From a virus, in the UHGV virus genome UHGV-0165227: DNA of 34,611 nucleotides; one strand, given 5' to 3'. Below, one piece after another: positions 18,969 through 33,705 of the stretch. The position numbers and the translations under genes are program-made. Numbering within the stretch: position 1 is the stretch's first letter; each line of letters starts with the position of its first letter. The notes under the pieces are model-generated. The model saw only the letters and a list, made by a program, of their open reading frames with translations, made no database searches and had not been told where the DNA came from.

Positions 18969-19481
18969 TTAAACGGTATGATATTTCATTCTGGCTGCCT
19001 CAAAAGCCGCAGCGGCAAGTTCGGCAGTGTCATGGTATCCAAGGTTAATACACTTTCCAGACGCATTAATTCTTGCTCTCCATTTCCCGTACTTAGCATC
19101 CCAAGACACGCCACGGTATCCAGATTTATTATTCTTCTGAATTTTCCTGTTTTGCATATTTTCGGAATGAGTGACAAGACGAAGATTTGATATCCGGTTA
19201 TCTGTTCTTACCCTGTTGATGTGATCAATAAAACCATCGGGCATGGTGCCATAAACAATCAACCATGCCAGTCTGTGAGCAGGGTATGCTTTACCATTAA
19301 TCATAATCATTAAATACCCATCAGAATTTATTGATGAGCATTTCTTGAAAGCAAAACGAGAGTTCCATGTCAAAGTGGTCCTCTCTCTCCCCTGCCTCCA
19401 TCTCCAGTGAAAGTCGCCTGACGATGGATTGTAATCAACAACAGAAAGCACCATTTCTGGCGTTAATTTTATTTCTTTCAT
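18969..19481 (-). CDS. HNH homing endonuclease with AP2-type DNA-binding domain
   Basis: HNH motif DHINRVRTDNRISNLRLVTHSENMQN and AP2-like GYRGVSWDAKYGKWRARI; AAGGT RBS; sits between tR'-like terminator and late leader. Confidence 0.8.
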   Translation of the reverse strand: MKEIKLTPEMVLSVVDYNPSSGDFHWRWRQGRERTTLTWNSRFAFKKCSSINSDGYLMIMINGKAYPAHRLAWLIVYGTMPDGFIDHINRVRTDNRISNLRLVTHSENMQNRKIQKNNKSGYRGVSWDAKYGKWRARINASGKCINLGYHDTAELAAAAFEAARMKYHTV

Positions 19482-19603
19482 CGCTTTACCTTAGGGATAG
19501 AGCCTGTTCGCGTAGATATGACAGCCAAGAGCGGAGCGATGTTTCCACCACCATATCTCAGGCCCATATCACTAAGACTCTTGTTTTGATTGCACGCGAA
19601 TGC

Positions 19604-19628
19604 AAAAAAGCCCACAGGAGGTGGGCTT
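19604..19628 (-). terminator. Intrinsic terminator downstream of late promoter (tR'-like)
   Basis: Minus-strand GCCCAC-CTCCT-GTGGGC followed by TTTTTT. Confidence 0.6.
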
Positions 19629-19668
19629 GTGATGGTTGCTGAATGCAAAAGCAGCAGCATATGTGAAT

Positions 19669-19698
19669 ATTATGGCTAAATGGCTAATTGCATGTCAA
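19669..19698 (-). promoter_or_regulatory. Candidate late promoter pR' overlapping the 3' end of Q
   Basis: Minus-strand TTGACA (19698..19693), 18-nt spacer, CATAAT (19674..19669). Confidence 0.5.
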
Positions 19699-20194
19699 GG
19701 TTTTTAACAGCAACATGCTTAACTTTCTCAACACGTTTACGCATTTTGAAAGCATTTTGCATTGGCTGGTACAAAACAAATAATGACGCTTTCAGGATGT
19801 CGTCAATTTCGTTTCTACAGGTTGCCAGTGAAGGTTTTCTCCATCCCTCGCCACCACGTCCACACATCTTGCGTGGCTTTGCAGTCGCGTGATAGTAGGA
19901 TGCAATTGCTCGCTTAGATGAACCATGAGCGTAGTAGCTGAGGAGGATGCCAAAGGCTTTCTTGTCAATGTACATGACGGAATCGACGACCTGAGAAATC
20001 AACATTCCATCATCATCATTGCACATTGGCCTTGTCATAACTCTTCCCGGCTCTACGCTCTCCATGAACTTCGCTATTACGCTGCTCATGCGCTTTTCCA
20101 GACGACCTGAATAAACCCATGCGCCCCACAGTTCAAGCCAGCCATTCAGCCACTCATGCTGTTCTTTGGTGAGGTTTAGTTCTCTTATGCCCAC
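19676..20194 (-). CDS. Q: Late-gene antiterminator Q (Phage_antitermQ family)
   Basis: LELWGAW...RPMCNDDD...LLSYY pattern as in DLP12 QuuD-type Q; GTG start with GGGAGAAGG RBS; directly upstream of late promoter. Confidence 0.7.
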
Positions 20195-33057: not shown

Positions 33058-33705
33058 ATGAATTGCAAATCAATGACCAGAAAATATGCCATCATGATCG
33101 ATGCTGGTTTTTTGCGTGCAAAATTAGGCACAAAAGATAAGCCAATCGATGCGGAAGTAATCAAAGTATTTGTAGAAAAACTAACAAAAAGGCCTGAACT
33201 AGAAGGCATGATTTTGCACCGTGTTTATTATTACGATGCAGAGCCGCTTACCGGAATACAGACGCATCCGATTAGTGGAGAGAAAATTGACTTCTCTGAA
33301 ACAGAAGTTTCTAAAAGAAATAAAGCCATGCTTGATGAGTTGAAAAGAACTCCTTTTTTTGCAGTAAGACTTGGAGAGACAAACTTTCGAGGATGGAAGG
33401 TTGACCCATGGGCATTAAAGAGCAGTGACTCTAAAACTTCTTCCATTAATGCCTACAATGTTAAGCCTAATGTTCAGCAGAAAGGCGTTGATATGCGTAT
33501 TGCGTTAGATATGTCATCAATGTCATTAAAAAAACAGGCAGATATATATGCTTTGGTGACTGGTGATTCAGATTTTGTTCCAATTATAAAATTTGCCAGG
33601 AAAGAAGGCCGACAGATTTTTCTATACACACTGGGACATAGTGTCAAGCAGACGATGTATGAACATTCCGATTTGTTAGTGCCAGATACCATGGATAAAT
33701 TGTGA
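33058..33705 (+). CDS. NYN-domain (PIN-like) predicted ribonuclease
   Basis: NYN signatures: N-terminal YAIMIDAGFL strand and GVDMRIALDM...VTGDSDFVPII; start uncertain (33058 or 33073), no clear SD. Confidence 0.6.
   Translation: MNCKSMTRKYAIMIDAGFLRAKLGTKDKPIDAEVIKVFVEKLTKRPELEGMILHRVYYYDAEPLTGIQTHPISGEKIDFSETEVSKRNKAMLDELKRTPFFAVRLGETNFRGWKVDPWALKSSDSKTSSINAYNVKPNVQQKGVDMRIALDMSSMSLKKQADIYALVTGDSDFVPIIKFARKEGRQIFLYTLGHSVKQTMYEHSDLLVPDTMDKL

Follow-up and report, generated by a model that had tools for sequence, protein, structure and literature searches.

How an endonuclease gene has come to lie in the late-gene control region of a lambdoid prophage, and what it does there, is the question raised by UHGV virus genome UHGV-0165227 (34,611 nucleotides (nt), referred to here in its entirety as the window). 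This DNA is a lambdoid prophage of the P22/Sf6-like kind. It reads on the minus strand, and its genes include those for a small terminase of the Sf6 type, a large terminase subunit of the Terminase_3 family, P22 portal and coat proteins, NinG and an S24/HTH repressor. Between its phage-21-type late antiterminator gene Q and its lysis genes lies a free-standing gene for an HNH endonuclease with an AP2 domain. A first-pass annotation had read this gene as either a homing element or a co-opted packaging nuclease. We consider it probable, with appreciable doubt, that the best explanation is a free-standing homing-type endonuclease gene, of a lineage confined to the late leaders of those lambdoid phages whose Q belongs to the phage-21 family. 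The observed basis for this is the domain identity of the protein, the anatomy of the locus, its presence/absence polymorphism, synteny, purifying selection, and the low diversity of the cassette on diverse, unlinked flanks. The gene is itself an ordinary phage HNH endonuclease gene, already annotated in HK629 and E. coli genomes, and no paper describing the cassette or its leader was found in a full-text literature search.

The identity of the protein was consistent between analyses. The open reading frame (ORF), Pfam and PHROG agreed with the first-pass annotation on a free-standing HNH-AP2 endonuclease and on its exact coordinates. The HNH_3 profile matched over its full length (profile positions 1-46) at residues 66-110 with 66.1 bits (cut-off 24.8), and AP2 matched residues 120-167 with 35.1 bits, just over its cut-off of 33.3. 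PHROG 99, "HNH endonuclease", matched with an E of 2.8e-73. Membership of a defense system was rejected, since only generic "homing endonuclease" models matched in PADLOC ("HEase") and a search of NCBIfam gave no match. The protein is 100% identical to gp61 of HK629 (AFM76545.1), which is annotated "HNH endonuclease", and 99% identical to E2348C_RS13490 of E. coli E2348/69. A profile built from nine homologues, compared with the PDB, matched the nicking homing endonuclease I-HmuI (1u3e; E 0.0027, residues 49-113) and plant AP2 domains (WRI1, E 6e-7). The predicted structure had a mean pLDDT (predicted local distance difference test) of 65 with the HNH core below 50, so that a fold search was meaningful for the AP2 part only; that part (residues 125-167) was modeled as three strands and a helix and matched AtERF1 with a Foldseek probability of 1.0 and a TMt of 0.66. 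Residues D86, H87, N89, N95, N99, H105 and N108 were unchanged across nine homologues (60-95% identity), and this invariance of the HNH motif argues for a working active site. Between lineages, the proportion of synonymous differences (pS) in the HNH ORF was 0.65-0.97, i.e., saturated, versus 0.10-0.29 for non-synonymous differences (pN). Judged from these sequences, the protein is under purifying selection and probably functional, and the 170-residue product is a free-standing HNH-AP2 endonuclease of predicted activity.

Comparison with HNH-free relatives revealed how the gene is placed. We located the block that contains it by alignment with HK75, Huey, Sf6 and CUS-3, all of which have the same phage-21-type Q as the window (nt identity of the Q gene to those of Sf6, HK75, Huey and HK629 was 98-99.6%). 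The genomes are collinear up to the -10 hexamer of the late promoter pR' (CCATAAT, 19669), and collinearity resumes at TAAGCTGCCGTTAG (18963 onward). Between these points the window has, in order, a pause element TATGCT, a terminator (terminator A), a 122-nt 5' untranslated region (UTR) and the HNH gene. According to these alignments, the site of insertion in E. coli relatives immediately follows the pR' -10 hexamer and precedes both the native pause element and the native terminator tR'. Rather than all relatives with the same leader carrying the gene with no trace of its entry, most related phages were found to be without it and the alignment boundaries were sharp. The earlier view of the gene as an insertion relative to close relatives was thus borne out, and such a fixed-site presence/absence polymorphism with sharp boundaries, between otherwise homologous genomes, argues for a homing-type gene. 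The same annotation had set the insertion between the late terminator and the lysis leader, which is correct in that the gene lies past terminator A, but the site itself is right after the -10 hexamer and upstream of tR'. The terminator it marked at 19604-19628 is indeed present, but it belongs to the gene's own block, and a second terminator directly after the gene (18962-18919) had been overlooked. The 187-bp cassette leader was found in 41 E. coli genomes, and these were nearly all the same genomes as the 39-40 in which the ORF is present. Terminator A is, on sequence grounds, part of the block that travels with the nuclease gene.

The distribution of the cassette was then considered at the population level. 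Among complete E. coli genomes, 39 of 5426 carried the cassette and at least 354 had a contiguous empty phage-21-type leader, while IMG/VR yielded ~40 filled and at least 120 empty loci. The cassette was at least 98.8% identical across differing phage backgrounds, lysis modules and nin modules: filled alleles had differing nin genes upstream and, downstream, a lambda-type S, a P22-type holin/RrrD, or tRNA-Asn and tRNA-Thr genes. We measured linkage and diversity in 44 filled loci (34 unique haplotypes) and 115 empty loci (97 unique haplotypes). The fixation index (Fst) of filled versus empty loci was 0.29 in the Q gene at 0-20 nt from the junction, -0.01 to 0.02 at 20-520 nt, and -0.01 in the downstream hairpin. 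Nucleotide diversity among filled haplotypes was 0.005-0.006 in the cassette, 0.039 in the Q flank overall and 0.012-0.021 in its nearest 200 nt; diversity in the cassette is thus ~7 times below that of the adjoining Q gene. No Q haplotype specific to HNH carriers was present in a 16-sequence table of single-nucleotide polymorphisms, and the outcome was the same with 131 unique haplotypes. When contigs representing one genome per species were scanned with 18-mers, nearly all matches were chance ones in unrelated phyla. The cassette is a young, near-uniform sequence on older, diverse flanks that are common to empty alleles. This combination of low diversity and unlinked flanks is expected of a horizontally spreading element and not of an old insertion undergoing loss alone; homing could produce it, but so could other processes.

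Additional variation was observed in the allelic states of the locus. The common state in E. coli is the phage-21 leader alone ("B-only"). Filled alleles have the order A-HNH-B or A-HNH-C, in which C is a different intrinsic terminator that follows the gene in a lineage related to yong1 (L023/L024). In a rare state, terminator A is the sole late terminator and the HNH gene is absent ("A-only"; Hafnia phage yong1, WCHEC115106, L202, L204, L205 and L207). In WCHEC115106 (L010 2494-2600), L202 and L204, the cassette pause element and terminator A are joined, at the GGCTTTTTT common to both, to the sequence usually found after the phage-21 tR', and these HNH-free alleles may be either precise deletion scars or an alternative native leader. 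Short direct repeats flank every filled/empty comparison (TA(T/A)GCTGC, GGCTTTTTT, GGGCTTTTTGCATT), and owing to these edge repeats sequence alone cannot separate insertion from microhomology deletion. Decayed copies, as expected in the life cycle of a homing gene, were also observed: in PhiR12 phages and NCTC9112 nothing is left of the ORF beyond its first 67-68 nt, and the copy in L104 is frameshifted. In PhiR12_1 (L008 3533-3794) and NCTC9112 (NZ_LR134079.1 1300508-1300762) the leader, terminator, 5' UTR and ORF start are followed by an unrelated CP-933V-like late region. One Q-HNH-tRNA-lysis segment was found on a 179-kb E. coli plasmid, pCDF6_2 (L013 2288-3723, NZ_CP158430.1), and is a decaying prophage fragment in which the adjoining ninB, ninF and Rz are frameshifted or truncated.

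Table 1. Features of the Q-to-S interval of the window, and nuclease genes in the nin region of related loci.
Feature	Position	Strand	Details
Late antiterminator Q, phage-21 type	19676-20194	-	Pfam Phage_antitermQ 90.3 bits; PHROG 943 E 3e-93
Late promoter pR'	19669-19698	-	-35 TTGACA 19698-19693; -10 CATAAT 19674-19669; 18-nt spacer; near-consensus sigma-70
Q21 binding element, direct repeat	ATTAGCCA 19688-19681 and TTTAGCCA 19680-19673	-	Between -35 and -10; overlaps Q stop codon
Block present in window and HK629, ~705 bp	18964-19668	-	HNH-free phage-21-type relatives have 6-7 nt (TAGAAGG) instead; pairwise and multiple alignment
Cassette pause element TATGCT, -10-like, sigma-dependent (putative)	19656-19661	-	7 nt past the -10 hexamer; alignment
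Terminator A, stem AAGCCCAC/GTGGGCTT and T tract	19604-19628 (stem 19628-19608)	-	First terminator past pR'; terminator scan
Small hairpin UUGCAU-UCGC-GUGCAA, start of 5' UTR	19590-19605	-	Helix 2 of consensus fold, 6 pairs; invariant in seven closer lineages
Long 5'-UTR hairpin	19489-19577	-	3' strand holds Shine-Dalgarno AAGG of HNH gene
HNH_3 and AP2 endonuclease gene	18969-19481	-	170 aa; ATG start, TAA stop; Pfam, PHROG
Canonical phage-21-type leader, now promoterless	18919-18963	-	TAAGCT pause 18963-18958; tR' hairpin and T7 tract 18962-18919
Lambda-like untranslated leader of lysis operon	18515-18928	-	96.4% identity to lambda over 444 nt, reaching into S
Holin S, lambda family, first lysis gene	18191-18514	-	Pfam Phage_holin_3_1 105 bits; PHROG 126
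nin-region HNH genes	L015 and L016 302-868; L023 2776-3297; L019 1959-2549; L021 2544-3098; L022 2042-2518; L030 1651-2178		

The elements around the insertion point indicate how the gene would be expressed (Table 1). In a promoter scan pR' scored 11/12, and the HK75 and Sf6 records annotate pR' at the same position. Two 8-bp subsites in direct repeat form the binding site of Q21, and for its loading a template needs no more of PR'21 than positions -40 to -1, provided that a pause element is correctly placed (bioRxiv 10.1101/651190). The spacing of TATGCT in the cassette is identical to that of the native TAAGCT of HNH-free relatives, and the element is kept in ten of ten lineages; its function as a pause is inferred from the Q21 mechanism. 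As the Q repeats are intact and TATGCT is at the native spacing, Q loading is expected to be retained on the cassette leader. The leader RNA with terminator A folds at -21.5 kcal/mol (z -3.2), and the tR' segment, a 17-bp hairpin followed by U7, at -20.2 kcal/mol (z -3.85). HK75, Huey and CUS-3 match this leader after the gene at 98-99% identity in positions 44-115 past their Q, and the leader corresponds to the annotated qut site and tR' (Tr') of HNH-free relatives, e.g., HK75 and Sf6. Terminator A would therefore act as tR', and the Q-modified polymerase would pass the old tR' as a further terminator. When the gene's strand was scanned from Q to S, no sigma-70 promoter was predicted besides pR' at 19698-19669. 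With pR' separated from the gene by a strong terminator and no further sigma-70 promoter predicted, the nuclease, flanked by two terminators, would be made only under Q antitermination, in agreement with the first-pass annotation. That annotation had also placed a lambda-like leader before S, which was found at 96% identity to lambda; the matching stretch, 18928-18486, comprises the leader and the start of S. Downstream of the nuclease gene are holin S, endolysin R and Rz.

HK629, a deposited complete phage genome whose host is recorded as E. coli, carries the same leader arrangement, which speaks for its compatibility with lytic growth. Its record (JQ182735; L001 2080-2195) puts a "putative late promoter pR'" ~30 nt upstream of the HNH start, past the terminator. 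This is probably a misannotation, as the 3' end of Q overlaps the near-consensus promoter that contains the Q21 repeats, which is also how HK75 and Sf6 are annotated. The predicted transcript from pR' to terminator A (19604-19662, minus strand) is ~58 nt long and consists of a CA-rich unpaired CAACCAUCACAAG, a strong terminator and a U tail, a layout that resembles that of an Hfq-type small RNA and makes it a candidate for one. The prophage small RNAs AgvB/AsxR and Pas were ruled out as the identity of this leader RNA, being encoded elsewhere.

Conservation of the 5' UTR greatly exceeded that of Q or of the HNH ORF. The 122 nt of this UTR, from terminator A to the start codon, are 88-97% identical between lineages, against nt identities of 64-80% for Q and 65-75% for the HNH ORF. 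Ten of ten lineages independently fold to the same long-hairpin architecture. In its outer helix UCUUAG...GAGCCUG pairs with CAGGCUC...CUAAGG, and the Shine-Dalgarno sequence would thereby be covered. A 7-nt bulge, ACGCGAA, is invariant, pairing of the inner helix (P2) is preserved through UA/CG and UA/GC exchanges, and the apical loop, which includes CGCUCUU, is nearly invariant. A covariation test was weak, with 33 of 500 shuffles reaching the observed score for seven sequences that have too little variation, and the thermodynamic z of the 5' UTR alone was an unexceptional -1.4. Support for the long hairpin thus comes mainly from its recurrence across lineages and from the compensatory changes in the inner helix. 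An Rfam covariance-model scan of the 5' UTR found no family, with only two sub-threshold chance matches at E up to 10, and ARAGORN found no tRNA in the leader. A conserved small ORF in the 5' UTR was ruled out because start codons and frames differ between lineages. A 60-aa ORF (19478-19660, minus strand) that runs through terminator A and the 5' UTR to an ATGA overlapping the HNH start is probably spurious; some gene callers fuse part of this ORF to the HNH gene, giving 199-aa versions (P0004, P0010), and the extension is not conserved between lineages. T4-family phages restrain homing endonuclease genes by terminators and by a hairpin over the ribosome-binding site (PMC2988022). Restraint of this type explains the outer helix but not the invariance of the loops. 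We regard the 5' UTR as a candidate regulatory RNA for a toxic nuclease.

These features can be combined into a model for a homing-type gene. The cassette would be self-contained and would replace the initial transcribed region directly past the pR' -10 hexamer, with its pause element at the native spacing; the upstream Q binding repeats would be untouched, and Q would still load onto RNA polymerase. In the lysogen, pR' transcripts would end at terminator A and no nuclease would be made. Upon induction, Q-modified polymerase would pass both terminators, and the nuclease would be produced late and, owing to the hairpin, at a low level. The enzyme would then cut or nick the DNA of co-resident related phages that are without the cassette, near the pR'/leader region, and repair from the cassette-bearing genome would copy the cassette in, with very short co-conversion tracts. 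The homing element of the first-pass annotation has population-genetic support, from linkage and diversity, for its spread, with cleavage and drive as the conditional steps. More tentatively, and with doubt outweighing confidence, we propose that the cassette targets the promoter-proximal Q-loading site in late operons of the phage-21 family and "self-heals" it by means of a substitute pause element and terminator, and that the 5' UTR is a previously undescribed cis-regulatory RNA (ribosome-binding-site hairpin, ACGCGAA bulge, boxA-like CGCUCUU loop) that sets nuclease dosage. This RNA could perhaps bind the AP2 domain of the enzyme itself, RNase III or NusB/NusE.

Homologues of the nuclease extend the picture beyond E. 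coli. Their sources were metagenomes and records labeled Pantoea, Serratia and E. coli. Down to 54% identity, every homologue has a Q21-family Q ~195-225 nt upstream and lysis genes downstream, with the same leader before the gene and a terminator after it; at 45% identity or less, neither a Q gene nor the leader was nearby. The Q binding repeats vary with the Q subtype (TTAGCCA, TGAGCA, TTTACC and TGAGCC among the window, 19673-19688, and L019, L021, L023, L030, L098 and L209-L211), and the sequence from the transcription start onward is conserved despite this variation. Three loci (L098, L104 and L121) have a chimeric Q, in which the N-terminal two-thirds are of the phage-21 type and the C-terminal third is different, together with TGAGCA repeats. 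This match between a chimeric C-terminus and its repeats suggests that the C-terminal part of Q may set its DNA specificity.

Several of these observations weigh against a homing-type gene or can be read without it. Q dependence, translational attenuation, cleavage and drive are inferred steps of the model. The cassette occupies only ~10% of the phage-21-type leaders in complete E. coli genomes. Recombination among lambdoid phages is intense, so that loss of linkage needs no nuclease, and recombination with selection could produce the same pattern of diversity and linkage. Given the edge repeats, the empty sites could be deletion products and not targets. No operator-like copy of the empty-site sequence, as is found for I-TevI, was detected inside the cassette, as local alignments were no better than shuffles. 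Lastly, the position behind a Q21-family Q is conserved to 54% identity, in Escherichia, Serratia, Pantoea and other records, which would be expected, too, if the gene had long been inherited vertically with the Q module or had a function that benefits the phage.

Such a function would be that of a late accessory ("moron"-type) nuclease that aids the phage without driving itself, is kept by selection, and is moved by homologous recombination in the Q/leader flanks; possible roles are late degradation of host or competitor DNA, or exclusion of related superinfecting phages. The Q-to-S interval is a known cargo site, which holds tRNA-Asn and tRNA-Thr genes in Sf6 and many prophages, and in some prophages these tRNA genes follow this same cassette. 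Synteny kept over long divergence, strong purifying selection on the protein, and a tightly conserved 5' UTR that implies regulated expression are likewise in keeping with a useful gene. We nevertheless consider this rather unlikely, as the gene is at low frequency (~10% of phage-21-type leaders) and truncated copies exist, its recent horizontal spread would demand strong positive selection of a non-driving gene, and the nearest families are annotated as homing endonucleases. The two readings also overlap, since homing enzymes give marker exclusion as well. The AP2 domain allows a different role, that of a sequence-specific DNA-binding regulator that acts on late transcription or on its own leader, the nuclease being inactive or secondary. 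The exceptionally conserved leader just upstream could serve as its operator, and I-TevI provides the precedent of an endonuclease that also represses its own gene (PMC2988022). This is improbable given that the HNH residues (D86, H87, N99, H105, N108 and others) are invariant in all homologues, that the cassette has no similarity to empty-site or promoter sequences, and that most phage-21-type phages run late transcription without it.

The co-opted packaging nuclease of the first-pass annotation, which would assist terminase in the manner of gp74 of HK97, we regard as the least credible of these possibilities, with hardly any likelihood. Its expression together with the late genes would suit this role, and HNH proteins were reportedly described by Kala et al. 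in 2014 as partners of some terminases. However, the gene lies upstream of the lysis genes, away from cos and terminase, and the identical cassette occurs with an Sf6-type small terminase, Terminase_3 and P22 portal in the window and with lambda Nu1/A in HK629, while its more distant relatives co-occur with Terminase_2/3 or Sf6/Terminase_6 sets. Furthermore, ~90% of relatives with the same late leader are without the gene, and its HNH_3 and AP2 domains are of the type found in homing endonucleases. Position and co-occurrence with several terminase types thus led us to rule this candidate out; a homing-type gene is the explanation that we consider most probable.

Other nuclease genes were noted in these phages. 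Further free-standing HNH_3 genes occur in the nin region of the same phages, between ninF and ninG or adjoining ninG (Table 1), and L023 has an HNH-AP2 paralogue between ninH and Q. These suggest that the nin/Q region may have been repeatedly invaded by nuclease genes. The window also encodes, in the early region beyond the repressor gene, a 215-aa protein with an NYN ribonuclease-like domain (33058-33705, plus strand).

Overall, the element is of an ordinary kind, and what makes it instructive is its location in the late-gene control region of a P22/lambda-like prophage. It represents a natural Q-loading experiment, in which the initial transcribed region of a phage-21-type late promoter has been swapped with the Q repeats and pause spacing kept, and could serve to probe what Q21 loading needs downstream of +1. 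Whether an HNH-AP2 enzyme homes into a regulatory site, and not a coding gene, is a tractable question in culturable coliphages (HK629 versus HK75 or Sf6-like phages). The 5' UTR, more conserved than either neighboring coding gene, is a candidate new RNA controlling a toxic nuclease, and this analysis also corrects where the HK629 record puts its late promoter.

The closest known counterparts of the window gene are HK629 gp61 and E2348C_RS13490, which likewise lie between a phage-21-type Q and lysis genes and have in common with it the leader and the two terminators. The rest of HK629 is lambda-like, whereas the window is a P22/Sf6-like prophage, and the two have only mosaic segments in common. 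HNH-AP2 proteins of the Xanthomonas phages Xp10 and Xop411 and of Felix-O1-like and T5-like phages have the same architecture and size and are 42-45% identical to the window protein over the full length, but their genes are in other genomic contexts. These proteins have been treated as HNH/AP2 endonucleases (PMC2248197). I-HmuI of Bacillus phage SPO1 resembles the window protein, weakly, in its HNH_3-type core and the preceding beta region, and in being small and phage-encoded. It is, however, encoded in a group I intron, whereas the window gene is free-standing in a regulatory leader and has an AP2 domain, and in the profile search the DNA-binding part that follows the HNH core of I-HmuI was not matched by the AP2 part.

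With respect to regulation, the window gene is similar to T4-type nuclease genes (the free-standing mobE and segB, and the intron-encoded I-TevI to I-TevIII), which are also small, lie between conserved genes, are controlled by flanking or internal terminators and by an RNA hairpin that hides the ribosome-binding site, and have late expression (PMC2988022). The T4 ribosome-binding site is freed through a late promoter located within the hairpin, whereas no such promoter is predicted in the window, where late expression would be by Q antitermination; and the T4 genes are at junctions of coding genes, while the window cassette is in a promoter-proximal antitermination leader. Packaging HNH proteins of the HK97 gp74 type are, like the window protein, members of the HNH superfamily that are made late, but they are of another HNH subfamily, adjoin terminase and cos, and are tied to terminase type, none of which is true of the window gene. 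The tRNA cargo of phage 21 and Sf6 occupies the same interval downstream of pR'/tR' as the window cassette and is expressed by Q read-through. The stx genes of Stx phages are Q-to-S cargo as well. Such cargo sits downstream of the native tR', whereas the window cassette is upstream of it and replaces the initial transcribed region itself.

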